Of a DNA stretch of 64,000 nucleotides, positions 6,948 through 49,722 are shown piece after piece. Where the stretch lies: positions 137,097-201,096 of the forward strand of contig CAXXFK010000031.1 in assembly GCA_963663965.2 (NCBI GenBank), read 5' to 3'. Position 1 is the first letter of the stretch, and every line of letters begins with the position of its first letter. This DNA is from Sedimentisphaerales bacterium. GTDB lineage: Bacteria; Planctomycetota; Phycisphaerae; Sedimentisphaerales; SM23-30. Below the pieces are notes generated by a model, which saw nothing but the letters and a program-made list of their open reading frames with translations, did no database searches and was not told where the DNA came from. Made by a program: the position numbers and the translations under genes.

Positions 6948-7085
6948 TATCAATGGCCATAATGAGGGGTTTGAGTAATAATGGCACGGACAGCGATGTT
7001 CATGGCCAGGCGGATTCGACTTTCACCCGGACTCTTGTGTTTTCAGGGTATCCAATTGCACCGCAATCAGTGAAAGCTCCAAAGA

Positions 7086-7325
7086 TCAACCGCCATTATC
7101 CTGACTCTTTGCCCATTTGATAGCATACCGGAGCAGATCCGCGGCATTCAACAAATCCAGCTTTTCCCGGATGCGCAAGCGATATGTTTCGATGGTTTTT
7201 GGGCTCAGAAAGAGTTTTTTGGCGATCTGGGTGGTCTTACTGCCTTCACCGATCAGACGGAATACCTCGATTTCCCGGTCGCTTAGCGTTTCGATCGGCG
7301 TTTTGGCCGGGCATACGCCATCGCG
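7086..7325 (-). pseudogene. C-terminal LuxR/NarL HTH fragment of a response regulator (receiver domain missing)
   Basis: Manual minus-strand translation: PIETLSDREIEVFRLIGEGSKTTQIAKKLFLSPKTIETYRLRIREKLDLLNAADLLRYAIKW...GG*; no start codon or N-terminus. Confidence 0.85.
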
Positions 7326-7328
7326 AGC

Positions 7329-17400: not shown

Positions 17401-19353
17401 CCATGGGGCTCCATCGATAAGTTGAAATGAACCATCGCCGGCACGTTTTGCTGTACCTACGAACTTTACTGAAGGTGTATCTTTATCGTCAGCTATACCT
17501 ACATGTACAATAGGCTTAGCACTCACCTTGCTGTCTGTTTTCTTTAACTTGGCCCATGCCTTAGCTATATTTTCTGCAAACTGTTCTGCGTCACCGTCGA
17601 ACTGAATTACTGAAAGCCCTTTACCATCCCAGCTGCCCATAGTGGCTGGATCGTATCCGGAGATATAGTAGCCGGCTCCTTCGTAGTAGGTCACTGCTGG
17701 ATGGTCAGCCCAGGCTTTCTTTTGGCCTTTCTGTTCAATGAACATTGCTTTACCCTGCGTCAGGTTATGGGCTTCCATGGCTTTCAGCGTGGAATCTTCA
17801 TCAGTCCACTCCGTCCAGTTCACCACCAGATCCTCAGTTATGTGCGACTGCAACCAATAGGTATGGTCGGTCATTTTAGCATCAGGATATTGCGTCGAAA
17901 TGTATTCATACAGCCATTGCCTGAAAGATAGATTCGTACTGATCGTATCATTGCCCGTTGGTTTAAAGATTATCCTGCGGTAATCGCTAAGGTTATGCGT
18001 ACCATCATCAATAACCTCGCATATCAACATGAAAGCTCTTCCCACCGGAATCGGACGGGATATCTATCATGGCAACACTTGAGCTGCTGTTTGAGATATT
18101 GACATCATCAGTATATGTACCCGCTTCGGATAATACCCACCACTTGAAGGTCAGCTTGTCGTCATCCGGATCAAATGTATCAGATGCGTCGAGTGTGATA
18201 GTCGAACCCTCCTGAGGCCTTTTCGTAATTATAGCAATACCGTCGTCACCATCAATGACAATGACCGGATTCCGGTTACCTGCACCGTCTTTTGCCCAGT
18301 CCATTCGGGCTGCAAAGTTGTTAAATGTTGCCTGGTAAAAATATTGTTGATATTTTGAGGAAATGTTTCTTGCATTGCCGCTGTGGTTTTGATACGCATT
18401 GGTTGCGTTGTCCTTGCATTGACCAAATTCAAAATAACCGCCCCAGCCGACTTGATTTGGGATCTGCGGATCATTCAGTCCAGTAGGCATGAGATGAAGA
18501 AACGCGGGAGTATCACCTTCAACTCCATACTTATATTTCGGATACCTGTTGCCCAAATTGCCATGGCCCTGGATATGGTTTGATATTCATCCCATCTGCT
18601 TCTGCCGGTGCCATTCTGATAGCCCCACGCGGATTCATCCCAAATGAAAAACAGGTCCTTCTCAAACTCTTTGCGCATCCATTGGTGAGAACTTTCCGGC
18701 CAATTGATTACATTACCCGATTTTTGGGCTCCATCCTGATCCGTGATTGTATAGACGCGAATCTTGCTTAGAAAAGCTTTCAATTGTTCGGGGGTTCGCT
18801 CTTGCTGTACCTGCCAGCATGCCTGGGCAAGCGTGTTTCCTCCACCCCATACCGTTACCCAAATGGGACGATCATCTTCTTCATCAGCCAGTTCAATAAT
18901 TCTTTTGCTTCCATCGGAATTGTTATTTTCGCCGATATACTGCTGTCCCCTGTTTTTACTGCCTAACAGGATACGCTCTCTTAAATAATCCGGGCTCGGC
19001 CAGTATCCGATTTCCTGAGGCTCGGCATCGTGCAGATGTCCCTGCTGGTTGGAGCGTTTCATTAAGTTGGGTAAATCTTTTTCGTATAAATCAATCGTTT
19101 CCCGGATCAGATTCAGACCGGTATCTCCAGCATTGGCCCATACGCTCCAACCGGTTGAATGGATCAGAGCTTCTATTTCATACAAGTCGGCATGGACAAG
19201 AAGCCGAATCATGGATTCCATGTCGTCAGGTTCAACATTGTCGGGCGAGATATCTGTCAGCACAACAAGACGCGGTTTAAGCGGAGCTGCAATGGATGAA
19301 GCAGTTATCCCCAGGGAAAGCAGCATAAGCATCATTATTAAGTTGTTCTTCAA
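14465..19353 (-). CDS. Giant secreted multidomain protein (~1600 aa when joined): DUF1593 - Sde182-type C-terminal domain - unknown - LamG - unknown - DUF1593 - truncated DUF1593; several frameshifts
   Basis: Abutting ORFs 18475-19353, 18008-18556, 16234-18045, 15772-16197, 15516-15767 and 14599-15273 read continuously across frame changes. DUF1593 starts: [84 protein letters not shown] start with CGGAGA RBS. Confidence 0.75.
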
Positions 19354-19564: not shown

Positions 19565-22500
19565 AGTTTACATTAATAACCACGCGACGATAGGCGTAAA
19601 GATTGGGAGAGCCATTGTCTCGCAGCGTTAAGATATATATAGATCGTCTTGCCCCCCGCATCAGACGGAACTGATACTGTTGCAGATGACGAAGTACTGC
19701 CCGAAATCGACACAGGGCTTTTATAGGAACTGGGTTCAGCGTAAACTGCCCATGAATAAACCAGTGAATTGCCGTCCGGGTCGCTGGAACCGGCTGCGCT
19801 GAGAGCAACGCTGGAACCGGCGGAGGCCGAGACGGTCAGCACTTGCCTTGTGCTGTCATCATTGACAACCGCAACAGGATGATGGTTGCAACTGGAGTAG
19901 TTGCTGGTTAAAGTCCAGTCCATGCGGGCGGCAAAATCATTCTCAATGGCGGTTTTCCAGCGACTTATCGAACTGCCGCCTTCCGAAGCATCGCCGTACA
20001 TATAGTATGGATCGTATGCCGATTCACCAGTGACCGCCGACATTCCTCGGCTGTTAGCCACTTTGGTCAGAATCATACGTCCGCCCCAACCGCCCCAATT
20101 AACATGCTCAGGATCGTTGAGGCCATTGAGCAACTGGTAGAAAAACGCAGGGGTGTCACCTTCGTAGGTCCACTCTTTTTCCGGGTATTGAGCCCCCAGC
20201 ACGCCGTGATTTTGGATGTTATTGTCATAATAACTATCGCTGGATTGCCAATTATAGACCCCCTTGAAGCGGATATAGAAAAGACTCGGAAAGGTTTTGG
20301 TCATCCAGGCCCCGGTTTCATCCTGTCCCAGGATGTCATACACCCGCAGTTTGCTCACAAATTGATCAACCTGGGCCGGGGTCCGCGTGTTCTTAACTTT
20401 CCACAGCGCCTGCGCCAGGGTGTTTCCACCGCCCCAGAAGTTAACCCAAACAGGGCGGGGGTCGTCTTTATCCACCGCGGCAATGATCAGTTCCGAACCG
20501 TCGCTGTCTTTACCTTCGCCAATCCCAGCCATACCATAACCGGTTTGACCCAGCTTGGAGATGGACTGCAAATATGCAAGGGTGGGATACCCCTCAGCAT
20601 GTACTATGAGTTTGTCATAAACCTGCCCATAAGCGTTCAGTCTGGGATTAAGCAGGTTGTTCATATTGGTTAAGGTCTGAGACTTTTTCCAGCAACTGGT
20701 CCCGACAATAATGCCTTCAATATCACACTCATTGGCCGTCACCAGCATGCGAACCAACGATTGCAGGTCATCGTTGTCGGCGCCAAGGTCGGTGGTGTTG
20801 ATCACCCGATGCTTCTGAAAAACGGGTCTTTCCCATAGCCAGTTTTGGCTGAGCACACTAAAATCTCTCATATTTACACAGCCGTCACCAGTAACATCGG
20901 TTATGGGGTCGCTGCATGACAGCCAATCGGCAGCCAGTTCAGTCAAATCATCGATATTAATTCTGTTATCGTCAGTAAACTCCGGGAAATCTGCTGATAT
21001 TGTCGTAAAACTTCGTGTCCCCGAAGCATAGGGAGTCGTCCCGTCATAGGCAATCACAGCCCAGTAATAGGTCGTGTCATTGTCCAATGCTTCTGCCGGA
21101 TCAAATGCTTCGGTCCCAACACTATAGCTGGGATTTTCGCTAACGACTGAATTGGTGCCAAGGAAAACCTCGTACGATGTGGGCGTATATGCCATTGGCG
21201 CCGTCCATTGTAAAGCGGTCACAACTGACACATCCTCCTGAACACTGGAAGGATAGATTAAAACAGGCAGATTCGGGTCCGGTTCTTGATTAAATTCAAT
21301 TTTAAAACCATTCATCACAAACCACGCCTCATTATAGGCCGTCGAATACGGCTGACAATCAAAGACAAGGGAAACATCCGAACCGTCAGAAACAAGCGTC
21401 GTTTCGAACTTCGCTACGCTGTCAAATGTCGTGGCGCTGCTGTTGGTACACTGAATATCTGTCGTCGTCACTGAACCGGTCGCATCATTGACCGTGACAT
21501 CGAATGTGCCAATATTTGCAGTCGGTTCTGTATCCGTATGGTATGACACCCAGGTATATTCGCCCGCCGGCAGGCCGCTGATCGTCAGCGTCAGAGGATC
21601 GCCGGCCGAACGGGTATCCGAGCCGATCCAGTCCTGCATCAGCGCTTCGGTCGCATCCTCATAGGCCTCCGGGCCCCGGTCGAGCATCTGCATCACCGCA
21701 TCCACCGCACCGGACGCCCAACTGGGAGTCACGCTGACGGTTGTTTCAAACACAGAATAGCTCTGCGTGGTAAAACTGCCTGAACTTTCATGACTGGCCG
21801 TATATGCCGCATAGTCACTCTGCACTGGGGAACCGGATGTGCCAAAATCAATCCGCAGGGTTTCACCCCCGACGGGAGTGTCGTTAATCGTGGTAAAACT
21901 CCAGGTCTCCTCGGACATATATCCAGTCGTACTGTCATAGGCAACGACGGCCCAATAATAAGTCGTTCCCAAGGCCAGCGGTGTCCCCGGTGTGTACTCT
22001 TCGGTGGATGCAAAATAAACCGGATTATTGGTGACTGTTGAGTCGGTTCCCAGATAGACATCATACCCAGTGGGAGTATAGGCCGTGGGTGATTCCCACT
22101 GCAACATGGGCAGGATTGATATATTGCCTTGGCCGTCCGACGGTGCTGCCAACACCGGAAGGTTCGGATTCGGAGGAGACACTTCCGGACCATAGACAAC
22201 AAGATCGTCAATGTAGATATCGACACCTGAGGCCGGTCCTTCAATGTAAACATAAAGCTCTTCATCAGTGATCTCTGCGGGAACAGTATAAGTTCCTGAA
22301 ATGTATGTCCAGCCGCTACTGTTAGCGGTACCCCCAATATGACCTGTCCAATTCCCATTGACTCTCCATGTGATAGAAATCGTCGAATCACCCGCGGTAC
22401 TGGTTCTAAAGTAACCTGACACATTATAGGTTGCCCCGGGCACTACTTTGTCATACAAATCCTGCTGCATGCCCTGGTAGGTTCCGGTTCTGCCGGTCGA

Positions 22501-22764
22501 AGCTCCGCACCAGGAACCGCCGTGAGGCGATGGTGTCTGTACACCGCTGACAGTGCTGCCGAAGTGGGGAACCCACGGGGATGCATCAGCTCCATTTTCA
22601 AATCCGGGATTGGCCAGGATATTCGTATCACCAAACGCCGGCAGGTTTAGCATCATTAGTAATACGGCTGCTATAAAAAGAGGGCTTCTCCATATATGCT
22701 TCGGTGAATAACACTTGCACATTGCGTGATTGGCATCACCCACCCAGGTAAACTTATTAAACAT
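19565..22764 (-). CDS. Secreted CBM4/9-like + Fn3-like repeats + dockerin-like + DUF1593 (nucleoside-hydrolase-like) protein; frameshift near the C-terminus
   Basis: NILANPGFENG...MQQDL...YIDD; two LQWxxPxAYTPTxYxVxLGT...TTYYWAV repeats; DVTGDGCVNMRDF; RVINTTDLGADNDDLQSLVRML...WGGGNTLAQ...EGDTP...WGGWGGR...DFAARMDW...NHHP. Confidence 0.85.
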
Positions 22765-22803: not shown

Positions 22804-24128
22804 GGTTCTTCCGAAAAATGAGTAGTTAATGTTGCAAAAAGAGAGACATGACTTTACTGTTTGAGGAAAAAAATAAAACCTCATATTAGGAGCTAAAGTC
22901 ATGTCCACAAGTATGTTGTATCATACTTTTGGTGTTCGAGGTGTTCAATACCAAAAGACAGAATATTTTTGCGGGCAAGAGCGTGATTCACGGCATCTTG
23001 CCGGCGGATAGTCTGCGTTGCCCTTGTTGTAACTCCCGTAATTTCATTTACTTCGGTCACAAGGCCCGGAGGTTTGCCATGGTACCCGCCGGTCTGCGTC
23101 AAATGGAGTTGCTTGTCACTATTCCCCGATTGAAATGTCTGGCGTGCGGGGCCATTCGTCAGCCTCATCTGCCATTTGCCGACCCCAAGAAGCATTACAC
23201 CCATGCGTTGGAACGGTATGTCATCGATTTATGTCAGGCGGCTTCCCTGCAAGAGGTGGCCCGACGGACCGGCTTAAGCTGGGATACCATCAAATCGATT
23301 CATAAGTCCTGGCTAGGTCGACGGTACCGAAAGATTTCCCTGAAAAAGGTTCGTTATCTGGGGATTGACGAATTGTATCTGGGCAGGAAAAGCAAATACA
23401 TCTCGCTGGTAACCGACCTGGAAAGCGGTCAAATTTTGCATATCGGCCAGGGCAAAGGCCAAGAGGCCCTGGTGGGATTCTGGGGGCGTGTCCGACGCAG
23501 CCGGGCGGTGATTGCCGCGGTGGCTACCGATATGGCCAGTGGTTTTATGACCAGTGTCCTGAAAGAACTGCCGCAAGCCAAACTGGTGCTGGACCATTTT
23601 CATCTGGTCAAATGGTTTAACGACAAACTGACCAGTTTACGCCGGGATTTGTACCGGGAGGCCGATACCATGGGCAAAGCGGTACTTAAAGGCAGCCGCT
23701 GGCTGCTGCTCAAAGCGCCGGAGAACCTTAAATCCCATGCCGATAGCGCCAAAGATGAACGGCACCGGTTGCAGGAGGCTCTGCAACTCAACCAGCCGCT
23801 GGCCACCGCCTATTACATGAAAGAACGGCTCCGTCTCCTTTTTGATGCGATCACGGCTCCGCTGGCTGAACAGGAACTTAAACGCTGGATCAGCCAGGCG
23901 CAAACCAGCGGGATTCGGATCCTGCTGGATGCCGCCAAACAACTGCAACTCTGGAAACCCTTCCTGCTCAATTGGTATGACCATCCCATCAGCACCAGCA
24001 AAGTCGAAGTCAATAACCGTAAAATCGGCCTCCTGCAACGAATGGCTCATGGCTACCGCGATCAGGAATACTTCTATCTCCGGATCCATCATATCCATAA
24101 CCAAAACTACTCATTAACCGGATGAGCC
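22804..24128 (+). mobile_element. ISL3-family insertion sequence, complete, with 8-bp target site duplication
   Basis: IRL GGTTCTTCCGAAAAATGAGTAGTT; IRR (reverse complement) GGCTCATCCGGTTAATGAGTAGTT; TSD ATTTTTGC at 22796-22803 and 24129-24136. Confidence 0.93.
22901..24125 (+). CDS. ISL3 transposase (one extra T at 22966-22970)
   Basis: MSTSMLYHTFGVRG after an AGGAG RBS; CPCC...CLAC zinc finger; GIDE, ATDM, LDHFHLV, EVNNRKI..QRMAHGYRD. Confidence 0.92.
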
Positions 24129-24477: not shown

Positions 24478-25344
24478 TCAGGTTGAAAGTCGATGGGCGT
24501 TTCGATACTCACGGGGAGTACAATGGCACAGCTGTTTGAAAGATGAATTGAATCTGCTAAGTGAATTGAAACCGGATTCCAAAGCTATTTCAAGAACCTT
24601 TTTGTTGGATGTAACAAGCAAACGTTGGGCATGCTGGACACGATGCTGAATGACAAAGTTATTTAATGTGATCCCAAAGGTTTTCTTGAAGATGTATGCC
24701 GCATAATCCGGGTGTAAATCAACTGATTGTGCGATATCTGAAAGATTAATTTTGTTTATATAATTTTGAGCAATGAATTTTGCCATGCTTTCAATTTTAC
24801 TGAAATTATAACTGCCGCTTGGTCTCATTGTGGGACCAGAAGGCAATTCCCCTGATTCTGTCTTGTTCTTTTCCAAGTTTTTTGCAAGGCGCAGAAGACG
24901 TGCTTTTATTTCAAGTAGTACTATTTCGTGAATTGCTGTCGAATCTTGATTAATATCTTGAAACCAATGTTCAAACAAGAGTTTATCATAAGAAGTAAAT
25001 GTTTCTACTTCCTGTATCAGTCGGCCATTTAGAATCAGGGTTGTGATTCTCTCTGGCAAGTCGAAATCCAGTACCCACGGCAAGGGAAGTGTTATGACAA
25101 AATAGGACTCCAAATCTTTATAATCCACAATCTGATGCGGTGTCGCTGCCCAAAACAATGCGAGTTTTCCACCTTCAATTGTGATCCGTTCTCCCCAAAA
25201 AAGGTATGTTAATTCACCTTTGGCAAAAAAGTTCAACTCGATTTCAGAATGCTTGTCAGGGCGATTCATCAATCTGGGTTCCCATTGTTCGCAGGTAAAG
25301 CCATATGGCGTAAATTCTTTTCTTTTTTGGTCGAAATGTTCCAT
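24478..25344 (-). CDS. AraC/MelR-like transcriptional regulator
   Basis: HSEIELN cupin, FWAATPHQ; C-terminal LHPDY..FKK..G..R..A..LL..IALESGFNSLSRF..TPREYR; divergent from the sugar operon. Confidence 0.93.
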   Translation of the reverse strand: MEHFDQKRKEFTPYGFTCEQWEPRLMNRPDKHSEIELNFFAKGELTYLFWGERITIEGGKLALFWAATPHQIVDYKDLESYFVITLPLPWVLDFDLPERITTLILNGRLIQEVETFTSYDKLLFEHWFQDINQDSTAIHEIVLLEIKARLLRLAKNLEKNKTESGELPSGPTMRPSGSYNFSKIESMAKFIAQNYINKINLSDIAQSVDLHPDYAAYIFKKTFGITLNNFVIQHRVQHAQRLLVTSNKKVLEIALESGFNSLSRFNSSFKQLCHCTPREYRNAHRLST

Positions 25345-25489: not shown

Positions 25490-26458
25490 ATGAAAAAAAA
25501 ACTAATGTTAAAAGGTCTGAGTGTCTTGATGGCTGTTGTCATGATGTGGTTGTCCGGTTGTGAGAAGAAAGGGCAAAAACCTCAGGAAACAAAAAGGATT
25601 GCAGTTGTTATTTCGACTTTGAATAATCCCTGGTTTGTAGTTCTGGGGGAAACCGCGAAGGCGAGGGCAGAGGAACTGGGCTATGAAGCGACTGTTTTTG
25701 ACTCAACAAACGATACAGCCCGGGAAACATCGCATTTTGAGAATATTATTGCCAGCGGCTACAGCGCCATTATTTTTAACCCAACAGATGCTGACGCTTC
25801 TATTTTCAATGTAAAGAAAGCAAAAAAAGCCGGAATTCCCGTGTTCTGCGTGGACAGGGAGATTAATTCCAATAAAGACGCAACGTCACAGATTTTATCT
25901 GACAATTACTCCGGATGTGTGGCTATAGGCGCTTTTTTCGTCAAAGAAGTTGGCGAAGAAGGGGAATATATCGAATTGCTCGGTTTATTGGGGGACAACA
26001 ACACGCAGAATCGGTCGGATGGTTTTCACTCCGTTGTGGACAAGTATCCCGACCTCAAAATGGTTGCCCAGCAAACGGCCGGATTCGACCGGACGAAGGC
26101 ATTCGATGTTACATCGGCGCTCCTTGGGGATCATCCGGACATTGACGCTATTTTCTGCGGCAATGATGCTATGGCTATGGGTGCGTATCAGGCACTTGTT
26201 TCTGCCGGAAAAGACAAATCTGTCAAGGTGTTTGGTTTTGACGGTGCTGCGGATGTTTTACAGTCTATTGCAGAAGGTAAAATCAAAGCCACCGGTATGC
26301 AGTTTCCCAAACGAATGGCTCGAACTGCGGCAGAATTTGCAGACGAATACATTAAGGGAAAGCGTGATTTCGATCAGAAAATTCCTGTACCGGTAGAATT
26401 AGTCACGATAGAAAATATTGATAAATATCACGACTATGACAAAAAGGCATCAGAATGA
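25490..26458 (+). CDS. Sugar ABC transporter substrate-binding lipoprotein (RbsB-like; apiose-binding candidate)
   Basis: Lipobox [38 protein letters not shown]. Confidence 0.9.
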
Positions 26459-27108
26459 AGCAATGGTTTTCCCGGAAAATGGCAATTTGGCTGTTCTTGG
26501 GCGGCTCAATCATAGGTGTGTTTATCACATTTCCACCTTTTCGTATCGTATCTCTGGAAGAGAACAGAAACAGGTTAAATGAAGGTGTGTTTGATCCACT
26601 TAAATTTGCCCGGCAGTTTTGGCAGAACGATTTACCTTCAACATTTGAGAAGGCGTTTGATGCTCAACAAGTGTTAAATGTTATGCGTAATAATCCTAAA
26701 GAGGCCAGAACTCGATACGGACGAGTGATAGGGTTGGGTGGCCCCTGTTATTATTACTTGAATGGGGCTGGCACGATAACAGCGATTGAACCCAGGCAGA
26801 TTAAGGTCCGTTTGGATGTGGAAGATACCGGCGCCGAGATTATCCTCATGACATCAATGGTCTTCGGTAACGAGATTCTTGATGCGACAAACATCATCAG
26901 CAGAAACCAATTCCAAAAAACGAACGATTATAATGCGGTCAGCGCCGAACTTAATAAGATCGTGGAGACGCAGCTTACAGAACCGTTTTTACAGCAAATA
27001 AAATTGGGCGAAACTATCCATTTCATCGGCTGTTCAACGGGTATGACGGATGAGGATTCACTGGTTCCGATGCGTCTGGTGCCTGTCAAATTGGAGACCA
27101 TCCGGTGA
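26455..27108 (+). CDS. DUF2291-like membrane-anchored periplasmic protein
   Basis: N-terminal [22 protein letters not shown]...[18 protein letters not shown]; sits between the binding protein and the ATPase. Confidence 0.75.
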
Positions 27109-28649
27109 ATGCAGTTAAAGACCAAATTACGAATTCCTTATCAGTCATTCTGGAGGCAAAAAATATTGAGAAATCGTTTCCCGGTGTTCATGCTCTCAAG
27201 CATGTTGACTTTTGTGTTTATCGCGGCTGTCTGAATGCTTTGGTTGGCGAAAATGGAGCAGGCAAGTCGACGCTGATGAAAGTGCTTGCGGGCATTTATC
27301 AACCCGATTCAGGCAGTATCTTTCTGGATGGCAATCCAATCCAATTCAATGATTCGCGGCAGGCCCGGCAGCACGGCATCGCCGTCATTCATCAGGAGCT
27401 TAGCTTAATTCCATATTTAAGCATCGCTGAAAATATTTTTCTTGGATATGAATTCCGGAACCGGTTTGGATTGGTTGACTATAGTAAAATGCATCGTGAA
27501 GCATCTCGTCTTCTGGAAATGCTGGATCTTCATATTAAACCCGACCGTCTTGTATCCTCCCTAAGCGTAGGACAGCAGCAGATTGTCGAAATCGCCCGAT
27601 CCCTTTCAATGGATGCCAATATTATTATCATGGATGAGCCGACATCAGCGATCAGTGAGCATGAAATCGACATTCTTTTCGGATTGATTGAAAGTTTAAA
27701 ACATCAGGGCGTGTCATTTATTTATATTTCCCATAAGTTGGACGAATTGTTCAGAATTGGAGACACTATCACTGTCATGCGTGATGGTGAGGTGATCGGT
27801 AAAGATTCGTTATCCAATTTGAATCATGATGCTGTTGTCCGCATGATGGTAGGCCGTGATTTAAAAGATCTTTATCAGCGAGAGGCATCCGTGACACACG
27901 AAGAGGCCCTTCGCGTGGAACAGATATGCCTGGATAATAGTCGTCACGAAGGGTGTTCAGTCAAGAATGTCAGTTTTCATGTGAACCGGGGTGAGGTTCT
28001 CGGCATTTTTGGGCTAATGGGTGCCGGGCGAACGGAACTGCTGGAGGCAATTTTCGGTTGTCATCCGAAACGATCAAGCGGAGATATTTTTATTCAGCAC
28101 GAAAAGCTGTGTTTGCAGTCCCCGAAAGATGCCATTAAGGCGGGGATTGTTCTGGCACCGGAGGACCGGAAAGAGCAGGGGCTTATCCTTGGTATGACTG
28201 TGGTGGAAAACACGACTTTGGCAAATCTGCAAAAAGTACAGCGATTTGGGTTTATCCAGACACAAGCTGAGGCACGAATGGCTGATATATATATCGAACG
28301 ATTAAAAATAAAAACCCCGTCCGGAAAGCAGAAAGTAAAAAATCTCAGCGGAGGTAACCAGCAGAAGGTAATTTTAGGAAAATGGCTGGCCACACAGCCC
28401 CTGGTCCTGCTGCTGGATGAACCCACACGGGGAATTGATATCAACGCAAAAAGAGAAATTTACCGTCTCATTGATGAACTGACAGAGCAGGGTTTGGCTG
28501 TGGTGATGGTTTCATCTGAGTTACCTGAAATTCTCGGGCTCTCTGATCGTATATTGGTTATGTCTGAGGGACAAAAGACGGCCGAATTCTCGCGAGCCGA
28601 AGCCACGGAAGAGGCCCTTTTAAATGCTGCACTGCCTAAAAGTGCATAA
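27105..28649 (+). CDS. Sugar ABC transporter ATP-binding protein (RbsA-like, two ATPase domains)
   Basis: GENGAGKSTL, MDEPTS, PEDRK, LSGGNQQKV, DEPTRGID. Confidence 0.96.
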   Translation: MNAVKDQITNSLSVILEAKNIEKSFPGVHALKHVDFCVYRGCLNALVGENGAGKSTLMKVLAGIYQPDSGSIFLDGNPIQFNDSRQARQHGIAVIHQELSLIPYLSIAENIFLGYEFRNRFGLVDYSKMHREASRLLEMLDLHIKPDRLVSSLSVGQQQIVEIARSLSMDANIIIMDEPTSAISEHEIDILFGLIESLKHQGVSFIYISHKLDELFRIGDTITVMRDGEVIGKDSLSNLNHDAVVRMMVGRDLKDLYQREASVTHEEALRVEQICLDNSRHEGCSVKNVSFHVNRGEVLGIFGLMGAGRTELLEAIFGCHPKRSSGDIFIQHEKLCLQSPKDAIKAGIVLAPEDRKEQGLILGMTVVENTTLANLQKVQRFGFIQTQAEARMADIYIERLKIKTPSGKQKVKNLSGGNQQKVILGKWLATQPLVLLLDEPTRGIDINAKREIYRLIDELTEQGLAVVMVSSELPEILGLSDRILVMSEGQKTAEFSRAEATEEALLNAALPKSA

Positions 28650-28662
28650 GTCGAAAGGTGAC

Positions 28663-29640
28663 ATGGAAAAAAGTACAGTAAAAACTATAATTTCTCGATT
28701 ACAATTGCCATTGGTTATTCTGATCATGGCAACAGTATTGAGCATACTCAGTCCTACATTTCTGAAACCGACGAATATTCAGAACATTCTTCAGCAGATA
28801 TCAATTAATCTATGTCTATCGATTGGAATGACCCTGGTGATTTTGACTGGAGGAATTGACCTTTCGGTTGGCTCGATACTGGCTTTCTCCGGAATTCTGA
28901 TGGCGGGATTTCTCAAAAATGGTATCGAGATACCCGCTCTTAACATCGCAATTCAGTTCACTTTTTATGGAGCTGTACTGGCAGGATTGCTCACAGGACT
29001 TCTGTCAGGAGCCATTAACGGATTTGCAATTACTCGGTTTAAAATCCCTCCTTTTGTAGCAACATTAGGAATGCTGAGTATTGCCCGAGGGCTCACTAAA
29101 CTATGGACACGAGGCGAACCGATTACAAATTTAGGCCCCAGATTTGAGTACCTCGCTGCAAACTCGTTGTTCGGCATCAGTTTCATAGTATGGATTCCTG
29201 TGATACTTATTATTCTGTTTATTATTGTAACCCGCAGGACCTGTTTCGGCAGGCATTTATATGCTGTCGGAGGAAATGAACAGGCAGCAGCATTATCCGG
29301 CGTGCGTGTTGACCGGATTAAGCTATGGGCTTATGCACTGAGTGGTTTGCTGTCAGCTGTCGGCGCACTGCTTTTAACCGCGAGATTGAATGCAGCTACC
29401 GTTGTCGCGGGTGAAACATATGAACTGGAAGCGATTGCAGCCGTCGTCATCGGTGGGACTTCACTCTCGGGAGGGCGAGGTTCGATCTTTGGCACGGTAT
29501 TGGGATGCCTTGTGATTGGCATCCTTGCGAATGGTTTGGTGTTGATGGGTGTTCGTGAAGAATTGCAGTTAGTTGTCAAGGGCGGTGTTATTTTACTGGC
29601 TGTCGCTTTTGATAAATTACAAAATGAATATTCAACTTAG
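28663..29640 (+). CDS. Sugar ABC transporter permease (RbsC-like)
   Basis: GGIDLSVGS, IPPFVATLG, AVGGNEQAAALSG, AAVVIGGTSLSGG. Confidence 0.95.
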   Translation: MEKSTVKTIISRLQLPLVILIMATVLSILSPTFLKPTNIQNILQQISINLCLSIGMTLVILTGGIDLSVGSILAFSGILMAGFLKNGIEIPALNIAIQFTFYGAVLAGLLTGLLSGAINGFAITRFKIPPFVATLGMLSIARGLTKLWTRGEPITNLGPRFEYLAANSLFGISFIVWIPVILIILFIIVTRRTCFGRHLYAVGGNEQAAALSGVRVDRIKLWAYALSGLLSAVGALLLTARLNAATVVAGETYELEAIAAVVIGGTSLSGGRGSIFGTVLGCLVIGILANGLVLMGVREELQLVVKGGVILLAVAFDKLQNEYST

Positions 29641-29658
29641 ACTTTATTAGGAGTTTAT

Positions 29659-31083
29659 ATGAGAATTATAAACAAGAAAATTATCTTTGGATTGATCATT
29701 GGAACAAGGAACATCTTCAATGCCGAATTGGCATCAGCAGAACGTACCAAAATACTGACGCTGCTGGATAAGCTCGGATTCGGATATGTTATACCCGATG
29801 AACATGCAACGCCTGCAGGAGCGATTGAAACTCGAACTGACGCGAAGATATGCGCGGAATTATTTAAGAAGAATCGAGATGCAATTGACGGAGTCATTGT
29901 TGTGTTGCCCAATTTTGGTGATGAACTCGGAATTGTAGCAACACTGGAAATGGCAAAACTCAATGTGCCGATACTGGTTCAGGCATGTAATGATGAGGTT
30001 GATAAGGTCGACATAACAAGTAGGCGCGATGCTTTCTGCGGTAAGATTTCTGTCTGCAACAACCTCTATCAGTATAATATTCCGTTTTCTGATACAACAG
30101 AGCACACATGTGATATTAACAGCGATGTGTTTGAAAAAGACATTCGGCAGTTTGCTGCTGTTTGCCGTACTGCAAAAGGTCTTCGAAATGCAAGGATCGG
30201 TGCTTTCGGAACTCGCCCGGCTGCTTTCCAGACAGTACGATACAGTGAAAAAATTCTCCAAGCATCGGGGATTACAGTCGTTCCTGTAGACCTTTCTGAA
30301 ATCATAAACAGAGCCAGTTCTATGAATGTCGATGATGCAGCAGTACAGGATAAACTGGCACAAATCAAGGCTTACGGGAAAATACCAAAAGAAATTTTAC
30401 CTGAAAGTGTACTGCGTCAAACTAAGCTGTCAGTCGTATTTGATGAGTTGATGGAAGAACACGAACTGGATGCCAGTGCGATTCAATGTTGGGATTCTAT
30501 CGAGAATAACTATGGTTGTGCAACCTGCCTGTCCATGTCCATGATGGGTGAGCGTTTGATGCCCAGCGCCTGTGAAACAGACATAACCGGGGCTGTTTCA
30601 ATGTATGCTCTCCTGCTTGCAGGGGGCTTTTCTCCGGGACTTTTGGATTGGAACAACAATTTTGGAAAAGAACCAAATAAATGTGTTTGCACACACTGCA
30701 GCAATTATCCTAAAAGCTTCATGGGAAATGAAGTCGAGATTTCAAAATTAGATGTTTTGGGGACTGTCATTGATCGAGAAAAATGTTTTGGAGCGATTAA
30801 AGGTAAGGTCGCTCCGGGTTCTATGACTTATTTCAGGGTATCTACAGACGATACAAACGGCAATATTAAGTCTTATTTGGGTCAGGGACAATTTACTGAT
30901 GATGCATTTGGGATGGATGGTGGTATTGCAGTATGCCAGGTCAGTAATCTTAGAGCGCTGCTTGGCCATATCTGCGAAAACGGCTATGAACATCATGTAG
31001 CGATGACCCGCTGTCACTGTGCGGATGTGATCTATGAAGCTGTGACGAAGTATCTGGGATGGAAGTTATATTATCACAAATAG
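29659..31083 (+). CDS. L-fucose/L-arabinose isomerase-family protein
   Basis: PNFGDE, RRDAFCGKISV, AIQCW, ACETD, THCSN, GYEHHVAM. Confidence 0.85.
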   Translation: MRIINKKIIFGLIIGTRNIFNAELASAERTKILTLLDKLGFGYVIPDEHATPAGAIETRTDAKICAELFKKNRDAIDGVIVVLPNFGDELGIVATLEMAKLNVPILVQACNDEVDKVDITSRRDAFCGKISVCNNLYQYNIPFSDTTEHTCDINSDVFEKDIRQFAAVCRTAKGLRNARIGAFGTRPAAFQTVRYSEKILQASGITVVPVDLSEIINRASSMNVDDAAVQDKLAQIKAYGKIPKEILPESVLRQTKLSVVFDELMEEHELDASAIQCWDSIENNYGCATCLSMSMMGERLMPSACETDITGAVSMYALLLAGGFSPGLLDWNNNFGKEPNKCVCTHCSNYPKSFMGNEVEISKLDVLGTVIDREKCFGAIKGKVAPGSMTYFRVSTDDTNGNIKSYLGQGQFTDDAFGMDGGIAVCQVSNLRALLGHICENGYEHHVAMTRCHCADVIYEAVTKYLGWKLYYHK

Positions 31084-31096
31084 GAACATAAACACA

Positions 31097-31927
31097 ATGG
31101 TTGACAATACACTGATCATAAAATCAATCCAGTATCGAATTCGTATATTGGAATATATTAAAAAAGCGAAGGCCGGTCATACCGGCGGAAGTTTATCCTG
31201 TGTGGACATCTTAAATGTTCTGTATAATCGGGTATTGAATGTTTCTCCTGAAACTGTAAACGACCCGCAGCGAGACCGTTATGTCCAGAGTAAGGGGCAT
31301 TCGGTTGAGGCATTATATGTCGTTTTGGCAGACAGAGGATTTTTCCCGGAATCAGACCTGGAAACACTGTGTAAGTTCAAATCGCCTTATGTTGGACATC
31401 CTACACGTAAAATTAATGGAATCGAACAAAATACGGGCGCTTTGGGACATGGCCTGGCATTCAGTACGGGAGTTGCCTTAAGCGGTAAAATGGATGGGCT
31501 GAGCTTTCGCGTTTTCACATTGCTGGGCGATGGTGAATTGGCAGAGGGTTCTAATTGGGAATCGATGATGACTGCAGCACATTATCGTCTGGATAATTTA
31601 ACTGCTGTCATTGACCGTAATCAACTGCAGATAACCGGTCACACTGAGGATGTCTGTGCATTGGAAAACCTGCGTGACAAGTTCACTGCTTTCGGATGGT
31701 CTGTAAGACATGTTGACGGGCACGATACAAGCGCTCTTAGAGATATTTTATGTACAGTACCATTTGAATCAGGCAAGCCCACTATGATTATCGCCAATAC
31801 CGTCAAGGGCAAAGGAGTGAGTTTTATGGAGCATGCTGTTAAATGGCATCACGGCGTACCCGACGACCAGCAATATGAATTGGCTATTACAGAACTCAAG
31901 TCGCGACTGCGGGAGGTGAGCGTATGA
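31097..31927 (+). CDS. Transketolase N-terminal subunit (apulose-4-phosphate transketolase A candidate)
   Basis: GHTGGSLS, SKGH, GHP, TGALGHGL, GDGELAEGSNWE, DRN, KWHH. Confidence 0.92.
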   Translation: MVDNTLIIKSIQYRIRILEYIKKAKAGHTGGSLSCVDILNVLYNRVLNVSPETVNDPQRDRYVQSKGHSVEALYVVLADRGFFPESDLETLCKFKSPYVGHPTRKINGIEQNTGALGHGLAFSTGVALSGKMDGLSFRVFTLLGDGELAEGSNWESMMTAAHYRLDNLTAVIDRNQLQITGHTEDVCALENLRDKFTAFGWSVRHVDGHDTSALRDILCTVPFESGKPTMIIANTVKGKGVSFMEHAVKWHHGVPDDQQYELAITELKSRLREVSV

Positions 31928-32874
31928 GTATGAATGCAACTGAAAGCTGTAAAGCAAATTTGGAAGTGTTTGCTGAGACACTGCTGGGTATTGCCCGAAC
32001 GAATAAGGATGTATTGGTGGTTACGAGCGATTCACGCGGTTCAGGGAAATTGAAACCTTACGCCGAAGCATTACCGGATCAAATCATTGAAGTTGGTATT
32101 GCCGAGCAAAATCTTGTTGGCGTAGCCTCCGGATTAGCATCTGCCGGCAAGATTGTCTATGCAGTATCACCGGGCAGTTTTCTGACAACACGGTCCCTGG
32201 AGCAGATTAAAAATGATGTATGTTATTCAGATCAACCCGTTAAATTAATTGGCATCAGTTCCGGCGTCAGTTATGGTGCGTTGGGTTCTACGCACCATTC
32301 ACTGCATGATTTGGCAGCTATTCGTGCAATTCACAATTGTACCATTATTGTCCCGGCGGATAACTTTGAAACAGCAGAAGCGATCAAAGCGGTAGCAGAC
32401 ATGCCTCATCCGGTCTTTATTCGTTTTGGTAAGAGAGTTCTGCCTCATCTCCACAAGCCTGGCACCTCATTCATGGTTGGTAAATCCCTGCTTGTTCGCC
32501 CAGGTGATGATGTCGCATTTATTGCCACAGGTGAATCCGTTGTGCAGGCGGCATTGGCCTCTGAAGCATTGGAGCATAAAGGTATTAACGCACGCGTGGT
32601 CAGTATGCACACCATTAAGCCTTTGGACGAAGAGGTTGTATTAAAAGCAGCCAAAGAATGTCGAGCTGTCATTACGGTCGAGGAACATAGCTGTTACGGC
32701 GGCCTTGGAGAAGCGTGTGCATCGCTACTGATGCAGGCGGGGATATCAGTGCCTTTTAAAATCGTGGGCTTTCCCGACGAGGATACGATCACGGGAAGTC
32801 AATTGGACATCATGGGGTATTACGGCATCTCGCAAGAAGGCCTTATCCAAACTGCAAAATCTATGTTGAAATAG
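31924..32874 (+). CDS. Transketolase C-terminal subunit (apulose-4-phosphate transketolase B candidate)
   Basis: EVGIAEQN, EQIKND, GSTHHS, TIKPLD, TVEEHS..GGLG. Confidence 0.92.
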   Translation: MSMNATESCKANLEVFAETLLGIARTNKDVLVVTSDSRGSGKLKPYAEALPDQIIEVGIAEQNLVGVASGLASAGKIVYAVSPGSFLTTRSLEQIKNDVCYSDQPVKLIGISSGVSYGALGSTHHSLHDLAAIRAIHNCTIIVPADNFETAEAIKAVADMPHPVFIRFGKRVLPHLHKPGTSFMVGKSLLVRPGDDVAFIATGESVVQAALASEALEHKGINARVVSMHTIKPLDEEVVLKAAKECRAVITVEEHSCYGGLGEACASLLMQAGISVPFKIVGFPDEDTITGSQLDIMGYYGISQEGLIQTAKSMLK

Positions 32875-32877
32875 GAA

Positions 32878-34377
32878 ATGTTCGTGAAAAAATATATTCT
32901 TGCTATTGATCAGGGGACAAGTTCAACAAAGGCCGTAATATTTGACACTGAAGGCCGAATCGTTGCCAAAGGCACTGAGCCGCTGGCTTCATATTATCCG
33001 CAACCTGGTTTTGTCGAACAGGATCCTTTGGAATTATATCAAAATGTATTGTCGGCGATAGAATCCTGCTTGGACATGTTTCGCGCCGAGATATCTGAGG
33101 ATCTGAGTCAAATAGCTACATGCGGTATAAGCAATCAACGGGAAACCTTCTGTTTGTGGAACGCAGATGGAGCCCCGATACATCCTGCTATCGTCTGGCA
33201 ATGCAAGCGATCAGTAGATATCTGCAAAAGCCTGAAAGACTCTTCGTTGGAACAGGAAATAAATAAGCGTACCGGATTAATTGCTGACCCCTATTTTTCT
33301 GCAAGCAAGTTAATCTGGCTCTGTGAAAACGACAGCAAAATCAAATCTGCCGTAATCGCAGGAGATGTATTTTTTGGAACAGTAGACACCTGGCTGCTTT
33401 ATAAGTTTACAAACGGTCAGCGCTATTATACCGATTATACCAATGCTTCACGCACACTATTCTTCAATATTGATAATCTGGAGTGGGACAATTATCTTTT
33501 GGAACATTTTGGACTATCAGGATTGAAACTCCCCCAGGTCAGACCATCCTCATTTGATTTTGGTACAACTGATTTTGATGGTTTATTGTCTTTGTCAATT
33601 AGTATAAACGCAATGATCGGAGATTCGCATGCTGCAGCTTTTGGCGAGGGATGTTTTTCTCCGGGAACAGCCAAGGCAACATTGGGAACCGGGTGCTCAA
33701 TTTTATTAAATACAGGGAGCAAACGAGTCGAATCGACCAATGAAATGATGACTACGATCTGCTGGAGTATGGGAAATCGTGTGGATTATGCAATTGAAGG
33801 GATTATTGTAACCTGCGGTGCAACCATCGTTTGGCTGAAAGATAACTTAGGACTGCTGAGTCGAAGCGAAGACAGTGAGAAAATGGCTCTATCGGTTCAA
33901 GATACAAACGGGGTGTATTTAATCCCCGCTTTTAATGGTCTCGGAGCCCCTCATTGGAAAATGGATGCAAGAGCCGTGATCTCAGGATTAACGCTGGGGT
34001 GCAATCGCAACCATATTGTACGGGCTGCATTGGAGTCGATACCGTATCAGATTATGGATGTGATTACTGCAATGGAGACATCCAGTAATATCCCTTTAGA
34101 GCAATTACGAATCGACGGAGGCATTAGTCAAAATAAATTTCTTATGCAGTATCTTAGTGATTTGCTCCAAAAGGAAATCACCAATATCGGGATGCAGGAT
34201 GTCTCAGCGTTTGGTGCGGCGTGCCTGGCAGGATTACAGAAGGGTGTGTATCGGGACATAGAACAGCTTCCGAATAATGTCCTGAATGAGATCAAATATA
34301 TTCCCTCCAATGATAAAACGGTCAGTGTAATAAAAAAGAATTATCAAGGATGGCTGAAAGAAATAACAAAACTATGA
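32878..34377 (+). CDS. FGGY carbohydrate kinase, glycerol-kinase-like (apulose kinase candidate)
   Basis: AIDQGTSSTK, NQRET, DPYFSASK, TDYTNASRT, KATLGTG, IDGG; has GDSHAA where GlpK has GDQQAA. Confidence 0.88.
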   Translation: MFVKKYILAIDQGTSSTKAVIFDTEGRIVAKGTEPLASYYPQPGFVEQDPLELYQNVLSAIESCLDMFRAEISEDLSQIATCGISNQRETFCLWNADGAPIHPAIVWQCKRSVDICKSLKDSSLEQEINKRTGLIADPYFSASKLIWLCENDSKIKSAVIAGDVFFGTVDTWLLYKFTNGQRYYTDYTNASRTLFFNIDNLEWDNYLLEHFGLSGLKLPQVRPSSFDFGTTDFDGLLSLSISINAMIGDSHAAAFGEGCFSPGTAKATLGTGCSILLNTGSKRVESTNEMMTTICWSMGNRVDYAIEGIIVTCGATIVWLKDNLGLLSRSEDSEKMALSVQDTNGVYLIPAFNGLGAPHWKMDARAVISGLTLGCNRNHIVRAALESIPYQIMDVITAMETSSNIPLEQLRIDGGISQNKFLMQYLSDLLQKEITNIGMQDVSAFGAACLAGLQKGVYRDIEQLPNNVLNEIKYIPSNDKTVSVIKKNYQGWLKEITKL

Positions 34378-34456: not shown

Positions 34457-34800
34457 ATGAAAAAGACAACATTACGAAATATGTCCTCGATAAACAAAAA
34501 CGACTCAAATCAAGGGCTGATTTTCAGTTCACTTTTTGTTGTTTGTATTTTGGTGAGTATCTCCCAAGTTTATGCTGTATAACAGGCGGACAGAACACAT
34601 TTTCGTTGGTAGTGGACGGTCAGTCCGCTCCGCTTTGTGTCAGCTCAGAGGATTTTTCGGCCGTGCTAAAAGTTGCCGGGCATTTGCAAACAGACATTCA
34701 ACAAGTCACGGGTGTAAAACCAAAAATTCTCACCGATGAAACTGCTGGAAAAACTGCCGTCATTAACGGCACAATCGCCAAAAGTCCGATGATTGATAAG
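34457..34800 (+). pseudogene. N-terminal fragment of a secreted glycoside hydrolase (GH115-like N-domain)
   Basis: Broken signal peptide, then APLCVSSED..VLKVAGHLQTDIQQVTGVKP...GTIAKSPMIDK. Confidence 0.6.
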
Positions 34801-35369
34801 TGTACCAGCAAAGAGGTCTTTATGCCGCTGAATCATCCGCCGGGCGAAGCTCAGGTCGACTATTTTCAGGCCCTGGCCAATATGGATGGTGTTTTGCAGA
34901 AGACATGCTGTTTTGTGATGAGTTTACCCTATTCGGACATGTTTTTTGTCCGGGCTTATCCTCGTGAATGTACGGAATCCTTCTGGGACGGCCATGTACA
35001 GGCGTTCAAGTTTTTTGGAGGCGTTCCCAGTCGGATCAGTTATGACAATTCCCGGATCGCGATCCAGCAGATCACTGGCTGTCACAAACGGGTTTTAACC
35101 GATGGTTTTTTACGATTACAAAGTCATTATCTGTTTGTGCCTCATTTTTGTGCTGTTCGCCGTGCCAACGAAAAAGGGGTGGTCGAGAATATCGTTCGAT
35201 ACGCCCGCTGCAACTTTATGGTTCCGGTTCCCCAGGTCCGCAGTTTTGATCATCTCAACGAATGGCTCTGGGAATCCTGTTACAGTGAGCAATACCGGCA
35301 ATTGCGTGGCAAGGCCAAAACCAAGCTGGAACTCTGGCTGGAAGAGGATCAGGGATTTTTAGAATTTAA
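34801..35369 (+). mobile_element. IS21-family IstA transposase internal fragment
   Basis: EVFMPLNHPPGEAQVD, MSLPYS, FFGGVPSRISYDN, NEKGVVEN..YARCNF. Confidence 0.85.
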
Positions 35370-36913
35370 GTAACATTTTAGCCAACTGAAGCAAATTTTC
35401 TAAAATTGTCAAGAAAACGCTTGCGCCCGTGTTTGTTTTGTGTATGCTTAACAAGCATGAGCATGCATAGTAAAGCCCAACAGATTCTGGCCAACCTGAA
35501 CGGACCGATGACGGCCGAGCAGGCGCGGGCGATATTTGCCTTGGGAGAAGAGGCGGTGGTGTTTGCTTTGCTGAAATTGTCGTCCCTTCAGACCGTTTCG
35601 CCCGCTTCCACTACGGGGGCGTTGGGGCCTCACGATCCCTCGTGCCCTTCGGGACAGAAACCGCCGTTTGTCAAAGACAATCTCTCGGACAAGCGGCGTA
35701 AGAAACTCAAGGGACGCAAAGCGGGTCATCCCGGCGTTCGCCGACCGGCTCCTGACCGGGTCGACCGGACCGAAGCGCATCGGGCCGACTGTTGTCCGGA
35801 TTGCGGCGGCCACCTGAAGCGCTGTGCCGAGACCCGCGAACGACTGATCGAAGACCTGCCCGCCTCGACCCGCATTGAAGTCGTTCGCCATATCATTCAT
35901 CGCGACTGGTGTTCCAACTGCCGCAAGATGGTTGAACCGGTGATTGACGCCGCTCTGCCACGCGCCACCGTTGGCAATGGGATGCTGGTGTTGTGCGCCT
36001 GGCTGCATTTTGCCCTGGGCAACACGATTTCGCAGATTCTGGCGGTGTTCAATTACCATTTGCAATTTAAAATGTCCGGCGGCGGCCTGGTGCAGATGTG
36101 GCACCGGCTGGCGACCATTCTGGAAGCCTGGTACGATGAAATTCTGGCTGACATTCAGAAGGTCGGCGCCTTGTTTGCCGACGAGACGGGCTGGCGGATG
36201 GATGGCAAAACCCATTGGCTCTGGTGCTTTACCAGCGCGACGGCCACCATCTTTACTATCGAGCAATCGCGGGCCGGGCCGGTGGTGCTGGCGTTTATTA
36301 AAGAATGGTTCGACGGCGTGTTGGTGAGCGACTTCTGGTACGCTTACCATGTGCTGGATTGCGCCAAACAAAAATGCCTGGTGCACCTGTTGCGCGAGTT
36401 GGAGCGGGTCAAAAAATATAAGAACTGCGACAGCGACTGGCCCCGGTTTGGCAAATCGCTCAAGCGGTTGCTGCGCGATGCCATCCGTCTGAGCAAGCGG
36501 CAGGCGGACCTGGAACCGGCCATCTACCAGCGGCGTTGCGCCCTCATCGAAAAACGACTGCAAGCGATTCTGGATCATGCCTGGTCCCATCCCGATGCCA
36601 AGCGGCTGATAAAACGGCTCAAACGTCATCAAGCCGAACTGTTTACCTTTTTGTATCATCCGGAAGTGCCCTTCGACAATAACTTCGGCGAACGCAGTAT
36701 CCGTGGCGCAGTGATCATGCGCAAAAACAGCTACAACAACCGCAGCCCGCGGGGCGCCCGCATCCAATCCATCCTGATGAGCGTGTTCTACACCCTCAAA
36801 CAGCGTGGTCTCAACCCGGTCGCCGCTGTCAAAAAAGCACTGCAAATCTATCTCCAAACGGGTAAATTACCTACTTTAGCCCAATTACCTGCTTCACTTG
36901 GCTAAAATCTTAC
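35370..36913 (+). mobile_element. Compact IS66-family element (single ORF), complete, with 8-bp target site duplication
   Basis: IRL GTAACATTTTAGCCAACTGAAGC; IRR (reverse complement) GTAAGATTTTAGCCAAGTGAAGC; TSD GAATTTAA at 35362-35369 and 36914-36921. Confidence 0.93.
35457..36905 (+). CDS. IS66 transposase (TnpC)
   Basis: GRKAGHPG, CPDC...CSNC, ADETGW, WLW, VSDF, QKCLVHLLR, DNNFGERSIR. Confidence 0.93.
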   Translation: MSMHSKAQQILANLNGPMTAEQARAIFALGEEAVVFALLKLSSLQTVSPASTTGALGPHDPSCPSGQKPPFVKDNLSDKRRKKLKGRKAGHPGVRRPAPDRVDRTEAHRADCCPDCGGHLKRCAETRERLIEDLPASTRIEVVRHIIHRDWCSNCRKMVEPVIDAALPRATVGNGMLVLCAWLHFALGNTISQILAVFNYHLQFKMSGGGLVQMWHRLATILEAWYDEILADIQKVGALFADETGWRMDGKTHWLWCFTSATATIFTIEQSRAGPVVLAFIKEWFDGVLVSDFWYAYHVLDCAKQKCLVHLLRELERVKKYKNCDSDWPRFGKSLKRLLRDAIRLSKRQADLEPAIYQRRCALIEKRLQAILDHAWSHPDAKRLIKRLKRHQAELFTFLYHPEVPFDNNFGERSIRGAVIMRKNSYNNRSPRGARIQSILMSVFYTLKQRGLNPVAAVKKALQIYLQTGKLPTLAQLPASLG

Positions 36914-44144: not shown

Positions 44145-44192
44145 CAATCCGTTCTGCAAGAACGCTTCTTTTTAGAGGTTCACTCTATATTT

Positions 44193-44456
44193 ATGCCTGA
44201 AAAACTAATCGCAACCGGTGTTGTACATAGTGTCCCAGCTGACCTGGAGAAAGCCCTGATAGCTGACAGTGAGGCGCTATCGCTATGGGAAAACATTACC
44301 CCACTCGCGCGTAATGAGTGGATCTGCTGGATTGAAGACGCCAGAAAACCGGAAACGAGGCTCAATCGGATAAATAGAGTCCAAATAGATCTCAAAGAAG
44401 GAAAGCGCCGTCCTTGTTGCTGGCCAGGTTGTCCTCACCGAAAAAAACAAAAGTAG
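44193..44456 (+). CDS. YdeI/OmpD-associated (OmdA) family protein
   Basis: VPADLEKAL...ITPLARNEWICWIEDARKPETR...RRPCCWPGCPHR. Confidence 0.85.
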   Translation: MPEKLIATGVVHSVPADLEKALIADSEALSLWENITPLARNEWICWIEDARKPETRLNRINRVQIDLKEGKRRPCCWPGCPHRKKQK

Positions 44457-44606
44457 GCATTCTTTCTAATCTGAATCGCAATAAAAAAAGCTTATTATAT
44501 GTTGTAAAGCATATGAACGATTCAGGCAAGATGTTCTATTGCTGGTTTATCCTTAGAATTTGAATAGTTTCCCATTTTAAATCCTTAACCTATAGAGTAC
44601 ACCAAA

Positions 44607-45902: not shown

Positions 45903-45917
45903 GTCCAGAGAGACGCA

Positions 45918-46946: not shown

Positions 46947-47212
46947 TACTGCCCACGCAACCTCAAGATAAGTATCTTACAAGCAGTAAGTTAGCTTCAT
47001 ATTCACTATTAATAAACATAGACAACTTCCCAAAACGATCATAATATCAATCTTACAGGCCGGCCATTTCCCTCACAAGGTCCGGGTACCATTAAAACTA
47101 CTTGACAAGACTGCGAAATAGCAGCTAGATTAACTGAAAGACCAGTTTTACTACGGAAATAAACCTGGTTTCGAATTGACAATGGTTTTACAACACGAAG
47201 AAAGGCATTACC

Positions 47213-49660: not shown

Positions 49661-49674
49661 AGTCCCTGTCCATC

Positions 49675-49708
49675 AAAACAGGCTATGTCTTAACGCATAG
49701 CCTGTTTT
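49675..49708. terminator. Bidirectional intrinsic terminator between convergent genes
   Basis: AAAACAGGCTATG-N8-CATAGCCTGTTTT hairpin. Confidence 0.75.
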
Positions 49709-49722
49709 ATCATTGATATGCT

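Follow-up and report, generated by a model that had tools for sequence, protein, structure and literature searches.

An operon predicted to degrade D-apiose in a Sedimentisphaerales bacterium, with an AraA/FucI-fold isomerase in place of ApsI

What does an L-fucose isomerase-like enzyme do in an operon that also encodes a sugar importer, a split transketolase and a glycerol kinase-like protein? The question is raised by positions 25490-34377 of a 64,000-nucleotide stretch of DNA (the window) from a Sedimentisphaerales bacterium (assembly GCA_963663965.2, contig CAXXFK010000031.1, positions 137,097 to 201,096). Plant cell walls contain the branched sugar apiose. On its non-oxidative route, ApsI is a xylose isomerase-like TIM barrel, AplK an apulose kinase and AptAB an apulose-4-phosphate transketolase. 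The non-oxidative D-apiose pathway with ApsI, AplK and AptA/AptB (MetaCyc PWY-8089) was reportedly described by Carter et al. in 2018. The genes at this locus are:

24478-25344, minus strand: AraC-family regulator, divergent from the operon (PF12833/PF00165)
25490-26458, plus strand: sugar-binding protein, likely a lipoprotein, of a CUT2 ATP-binding cassette (ABC) importer (PF13407)
26455-27108, plus strand: DUF2291 protein, predicted importer accessory (PF10054, E 2e-39)
27105-28649, plus strand: ABC ATPase with two ABC domains (PF00005 twice)
28624-29640, plus strand: ABC permease (PF02653)
29659-31083, plus strand: AraA/FucI-fold aldose-ketose isomerase, predicted D-apiose isomerase and ApsI substitute (PF02952, C-terminal domain only, E 8e-26)
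31097-31927, plus strand: AptA-like transketolase N-terminal subunit, TktN (PF00456; thiamine diphosphate motif GDGE...N from residue 144)
31924-32874, plus strand: AptB-like transketolase C-terminal subunit, TktC (PF02779/PF02780)
32878-34377, plus strand: GlpK-like, AplK-like FGGY kinase (PF00370+PF02782)

The operon consists of eight intact open reading frames (ORFs), all on the plus strand and with zero internal stops, separated in 5′ to 3′ order by -4, -4, -26, +18, +13, -4 and +3 nt. An earlier note on this DNA had described the eight-gene order, the tight packing and the absence of frameshifts; the ORF coordinates, gaps and Pfam families bear this out. Its gene list was right for all eight genes and overlooked the divergent AraC gene and the flanking insertion sequence elements. 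The AraC-family gene occupies the same divergent position at seven other loci (L001, L002, L003, L014, L082, L273 and L274); its product is likely the activator of the operon and would control its expression.

The operon probably encodes D-apiose uptake and degradation through the non-oxidative transketolase route; the product of 29659-31083 is the predicted apiose isomerase that replaces TIM-barrel ApsI. The pathway is already known, and the arrangement is a widespread variant of it with a different isomerase. The earlier note had proposed a non-homologous apiose-to-apulose isomerase; locus exclusivity, kinase and transketolase signatures, and apiosidase-like genes in orthologous operons, all read from sequence, support that proposal. 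The ABC importer with its DUF2291 protein would take up apiose, judging by gene context; its binding pocket fits ribose too. The isomerase, likely Mn2+-dependent through E306, D330 and a His, would convert D-apiose to apulose via an ene-diol, as FucI and AraA do with their aldoses; the metal-site residues are present in a predicted fold, and D-apiose is the likely substrate. Apulose is glycerol with a glycoloyl group at C2, and the kinase would phosphorylate one of its hydroxymethyl arms. By the chemistry of the published route, the split transketolase would then move C1-C2 of apulose-4-phosphate to glyceraldehyde-3-phosphate, giving xylulose-5-phosphate and dihydroxyacetone phosphate.

The window operon shares with the ApsI/AplK/AptAB pathway its importer gene order, a GlpK-like kinase with a D-S-H/Ser pocket and a split transketolase with a Leu..HH motif. 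It differs in its isomerase, which matches PF02952 and has an AraA/FucI fold, not PF01261; in its transketolase and kinase, which fall in separate clades (37-47% identity to the E. coli SE15 enzymes); and in its AraC-type regulator. The earlier statement that a TIM-barrel isomerase is missing was confirmed: no xylose isomerase-like barrel (PF01261) occurs in the operon, and no ApsI orthologue was found in the genome (94.6% complete assembly), where the best match has 28% identity over part length (residues 70-264; the frame has 450 aa and lies on a different contig).

The isomerase has 474 aa, relative to 591 aa for FucI, and its closest relatives are from Planctomycetota (74-80% identity). 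Its predicted model shows the three-domain fold and the Glu/Asp/His metal site of the AraA/FucI superfamily, and lies nearer to AraA (template modelling score 0.79-0.82) than to FucI-type enzymes (0.70-0.75). Identity to AraA and FucI is 10-14%. BLAST gave no significant match to either (E about 2 for E. coli FucI), there was no NCBIfam FucI match, and the PF02610 (AraA) profile finds another gene, on contig C32. The label "FucI family" given earlier therefore holds for the superfamily fold and fails as FucI orthology. A plain fuc operon was rejected for lack of FucI-level similarity and of fuc genes in the operon, and an ara operon for lack of araB and araD, the PF02610 match lying elsewhere; neither fucK/fucA nor araB/araD adjoins the isomerase, unlike in fuc and ara operons. 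The nearest named NCBIfam model is that of sulfoquinovose isomerase SftI (NF048012), of the same superfamily; the score of 96 bits against a cut-off of 700 led us to reject a sulfoquinovose pathway. Elsewhere the host genome encodes a canonical AraA, 56% identical to that of E. coli, and a second FucI-like protein (L197, G000:C13:52635-56042). The latter has 567 aa and 25% identity to E. coli FucI; its Glu and Asp are kept, and its C-terminal His aligns poorly.

A working apiose cluster without apsI has a published precedent in Escherichia ST131/ST14; strains carrying the Escherichia-type cluster grew on apiose (PMC13001218). The window importer, kinase and transketolase are of the same types as in this cluster, represented by strain SE15. 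The Escherichia slot, however, holds two short-chain dehydrogenase/reductase (SDR) oxidoreductases and no apsI, and neither SDR has an orthologue in the window genome (best matches 34-38%, outside the operon). We scored the slot in 80 enterobacterial aptA loci from metagenomes, retrieved with a Rahnella TktN query; ApsI was recognised by PF01261 plus a cluster member named D-apiose isomerase. FucI-like enzymes alone occupied 29 loci, the SE15-type SDR alone 15 and ApsI alone 3, and the remaining 33, many truncated and several full length, had none. Two types together were seen at 0/80 loci. The mutual exclusivity of ApsI and this isomerase family beside aptAB, which the earlier note had put up for testing, thus holds per locus, not per genome. 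All trees were quick or FastTree runs without bootstrap, with near-identical enterobacterial rows thinned by hand; in them, the three slot types interleave in one transketolase clade with a starred support of 100. Some loci were retrieved twice by separate routes, and counts from different samples are not additive. Full-length enterobacterial aptAB-kinase-importer loci without isomerase or SDR in 20 kb were also observed (L131, L134, L151, L165, L168 and L172); at isomerase-less aptAB loci the enzyme for the first step may act in trans.

Individual loci connect the window operon to known apiose clusters. In Rahnella (L084), TktN, TktC and the kinase are 79, 76 and 72% identical to those of the SE15 apiose cluster and the binding protein is 70% identical to that of the R. 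etli apiose cluster; a window-type isomerase (45% to that of the window) stands in place of the SDR pair. Rhizobium SL42 has the importer, transketolase and kinase gene set of the window with ApsI in the slot. On a Streptomyces plasmid, ApsI, transketolase and kinase genes lie behind genes of glycoside hydrolase (GH) families GH127 and GH28.

The transketolase and kinase carry active-site signatures common to all three slot types. The window TktC has the motif GALGSTHH with L120, and housekeeping enzymes have GPDGATHQ. Leu..HH was found at 109/112 isomerase loci, 19/19 SDR loci and 3/3 ApsI loci, and Asp..HQ in 25 of 27 control split transketolases. Lack of the Asp would fit apulose, whose leaving group would be a ketone and lack the hydroxyl bound by the conserved Asp. 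In the window kinase pocket, D249-S250-H251 and S274 stand where GlpK has D-Q-Q and F; loss of the Phe and Gln would leave room for the glycoloyl group of apulose. Among the aligned kinases from ApsI, SDR or FucI-like loci (window included), D-S-H is present in 27/28 rows, the Listeria enzyme having D-S-E, and the Ser in 28/28, whereas the glycerol kinase-type rows have D-Q-Q and Phe (5/5). D-S-H was likewise found at 100 of 103 isomerase loci and 19 of 20 SDR loci, and the window signature is identical to that of SE15 AplK and of ApsI-linked kinases. Against profile models, the window kinase scored 548 bits for GlpK (TIGR01311, cut-off 590), 218 for XylB, 82 for FucK and 61 for pentulose kinase. 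A glycerol kinase in a glycerol operon was rejected on the sub-threshold TIGR01311 score and on the D-S-H/S pocket in place of D-Q-Q/F.

The window transketolase clade was also sampled without selecting on the isomerase, by a TktN search of 401 Bacteroidales genomes that retrieved 24/27 places at E <= 1e-80 (the remaining three were in the locus set beforehand) and, as controls, 35/60 weaker places. Marker genes were called by BLAST to proteins from the analysed loci, a subset being confirmed by Pfam. The 24 loci at E <= 1e-80 had the isomerase in 23 cases, the kinase in 24, ApsI in 0, a PF13204-like gene in 4 and a PF07632 gene in 10; none of the 35 control loci had the isomerase, ApsI or either glycosidase-like family. 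Apiosidase-like genes also occur in closer operons. A DUF5060-PF13204-DUF5605 gene lies between the isomerase and tktN genes in four close planctomycete operons (L002, L003, L273 and L274; architecture Pfam-checked for L002 and L003), L013 has a PF13204-domain gene within it, and another adjoins the Listeria cluster L083. The same PF13204 subfamily adjoins the oxidative apiose cluster of R. tropici (L092), and PF13204 genes are present in the window genome. Just upstream of the operon are three ORFs of family PF07632 (Sde182/DUF1593, nucleoside hydrolase-like):

19573-22764, minus strand: PF07632 ORF
18475-19353, minus strand: PF07632 ORF, apparently broken or truncated
14599-15273, minus strand: PF07632 ORF, apparently broken or truncated

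Because 10/24 clade loci and 0/35 controls carry it, PF07632 is a candidate apiose-releasing enzyme.

Several observations weigh against the apiose assignment. Slot exclusivity holds at the level of the locus only, and a Pantoea plasmid carries an ApsI gene by itself (L262). The Rahnella query favours the FucI-like type, and the 80 aptA loci include close kin, so that their counts are not independent. The Bacteroidales controls represent housekeeping loci rather than other sugar operons. No apiosidase gene lies inside the window operon itself. Two controls share Leu..HH, as does the other split transketolase of the genome, which comes without isomerase or kinase. This second enzyme (L259, G000:C35:50000-69500) lies among radical-SAM and NAD-dependent epimerase-like genes, as judged by eye, a locus possibly of sugar-nucleotide or branched-sugar biosynthesis. 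The window transketolase is 47/38% identical to SE15 AptAB (47% for TktN to AptA), other split transketolases being at least as near; like the kinase, it is not nested in enterobacterial AptAB/AplK, deep node support being 39. The FastTree analysis placed both in clades of their own, apart from housekeeping split transketolases and GlpK, the transketolase in a clade (starred support 99) with enzymes from Bacteroidota, Listeria and Chloroflexota. Clustering away from AptAB and AplK had been named beforehand as grounds for giving up the proposal; the separate clades go half that way, with deep support of only 39. They are not fatal, because ApsI-linked transketolases themselves split into two clades of that tree. 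Transketolases named from Bacteroides species, compared as sequences alone, are 73-75% identical to a member of the isomerase-linked clade.

The separate clades would also suit another branched sugar (e.g. hamamelose, L-apiose or an apiose-like fragment of rhamnogalacturonan II) handled by the same isomerase-kinase-transketolase chemistry. The Leu signature, which is not unique to apiose loci, and the other gene contexts of the isomerase family point the same way. However, at L014 an isomerase of the window's own five-row clade (starred support 100) stands in the same gene order with a transketolase of the branch that neighbours enterobacterial AptAB; the two transketolase types therefore look interchangeable. 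Together with the apiosidase-like genes inside orthologous operons, this makes another branched sugar improbable.

The importer counts partly for apiose and partly against it. The order binding protein-DUF2291-ATPase-permease is found in the window and also in the E. coli SE15, R. etli and Rhizobium SL42 clusters; the ATPase is 43-44% and the permease 38-44% identical to those of the SE15 and R. etli clusters, and the binding protein only 32-45% identical to its counterparts, with 45% to that of the oiaX-containing R. etli apiose cluster. The R. etli protein is near-identical to PDB 5IBQ/4RY0, proteins that reportedly bound apiose and ribose. The window protein is closer, however, to ribose-binding TM0958 of T. 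maritima, its closest solved structure (PDB 2FN8), and keeps 10/10 of its pocket residues; the pocket comparison does not separate ribose from apiose. The T. maritima locus, whose orthology rests on the binding protein match, gene annotations, and PF10054 and PF02952 control matches, is a further point for D-arabinose or ribose. By annotation, the TM0949-0960 "RbsR" operon (darA, drlK, tktAB, rbsABC and TM0957) has an isomerase, an FGGY kinase, a split transketolase, an ABC importer and an extra small gene like the window operon; unlike it, it has rbsD, rbsK and a LacI regulator and was published as predicted D-arabinose/ribose use (PMC3750489). There, TM0951 (darA), TM0952 (drlK) and TM0953-54 form a predicted D-arabinose isomerase/D-ribulose kinase pathway, and the operon is induced on ribose and xylose (Rodionov 2013, PMC3750489). 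On this model the window isomerase would convert D-arabinose, on which FucI-type enzymes act (PDB 3A9R title), to D-ribulose, the kinase would form ribulose-5-phosphate, and the transketolase would be an extra pentose phosphate pathway copy. Several findings argue against it. The window operon has neither rbsK nor rbsD. Ribulose-5-phosphate is not known as a transketolase donor. The window kinase scores 548 bits on GlpK and 61-82 on pentulose and fuculose kinases. The T. maritima functions are labelled "predicted", and the experimental metabolite listed for TM0952 is glycerol (PMC3750489). The signatures and apiosidase neighbours favour apiose, and a D-arabinose/ribose operon is very improbable.

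The isomerase family serves several pathways, which also tells against a fixed link to apiose. The 80 loci retrieved with the isomerase comprised 39 with a split transketolase, an association beyond chance, 10 with araB/araD, 9 with a DRL or Zn-dehydrogenase set and no transketolase, and 22 short or unclear. DRL-type rows intermingle with transketolase-type rows in the tree. Homologues 47-62% identical to the window isomerase were seen beside a distant FGGY kinase and a DRL-type oxidoreductase and/or Zn-dehydrogenase, without a transketolase (L021, L024, L027, L034, L047-L049, L059 and L186); L059 and L186 additionally hold a PF13204-like gene, and such loci may encode another pathway for apiose or a rare sugar. 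The family has a third branch (36-38%), which adjoins a distant FGGY kinase (L288-L291). L054 is titled a Janthinobacterium bin; its operon groups tightly with a Hymenobacter one, and the label or binning is doubtful. An araB-araD-linked paralogue branch, 46-50% identical to the window isomerase, occurs in relatives of the window organism, Chloroflexota and Acidobacteriota (L279, L281-L285; L066, L067, L070-L074, L076, L077, L079 and L080) and is probably an unrecognised AraA substitute.

If the window isomerase were such an L-arabinose isomerase, it would be only loosely tied to the transketolase genes. Its predicted fold is closest to AraA, paralogues (46-49%) adjoin araB and araD in 6/10 loci examined from relatives, and the window also holds arabinofuranosidase genes of families GH51 and GH127. 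However, the araBD-linked isomerases form their own starred clade that excludes the window protein, the canonical AraA is encoded elsewhere in the genome, and the operon lacks araB and araD. We give this explanation almost no credence relative to apiose isomerization.

The operon is patchy among relatives, DUF2291 occurring in 2/61 genomes, and GC content is 0.39-0.45 over 24-34 kb of the window. The flanking features are:

22929-24125: ISL3 transposase
35406-36905: IS66 transposase
34543-35373 and 8823-9629: ORFs listed with the transposases flanking the operon, one partly like a transposase fragment

Plant-glycan enzymes are abundant in the window (GH29, GH5, GH51, GH127, GH43 and the three PF07632 ORFs); at 42639-58708, genes for GH29, a GDSL esterase, GH5, GH51, GH127, GH43 and a GH51-GH127 fusion (1627 aa) are clustered. 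A stretch of higher GC content (0.56-0.57) at 309-8302 holds an F-type ATP synthase alpha/beta-family gene and a GH94 fragment. A promoter scan gave 22 sites against 21.6 expected and a terminator scan 14 against 8.9 ± 3.2 expected; no regulatory site is claimed.

Bacterial apiose breakdown has had little biochemical follow-up, according to PMC13753588. The literature searched, which did not extend to most subscription journals or the primary apiose pathway paper, contained no paper that assigns a role in apiose metabolism to this isomerase family. If the isomerase assignment is true, it would fill the missing first step of this cluster across Planctomycetota, Bacteroidota, Spirochaetota, Thermodesulfobacteriota, Chloroflexota, Bacillota and enterobacteria, and would correct annotations such as "fucose isomerase", "glycerol kinase" and "ribose transporter". 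It would also make this slot, filled in three different ways, a clean example of non-homologous enzyme replacement. More tentatively, this uncharacterised AraA/FucI-fold subfamily is possibly a second, independently evolved D-apiose isomerase, the commonest outside a few proteobacterial and actinobacterial lineages. If so, thousands of "L-fucose isomerase-like" genes would be re-assigned to apiose use, as would T. maritima darA-drlK-tktAB and the Listeria isomerase-transketolase-kinase-phosphotransferase system-apiosidase cluster. In that case the D-S-H kinase and Leu..HH transketolase motifs could be used as portable markers, and the PF07632 proteins encoded nearby would become candidates for a new family of apiose-releasing enzymes.

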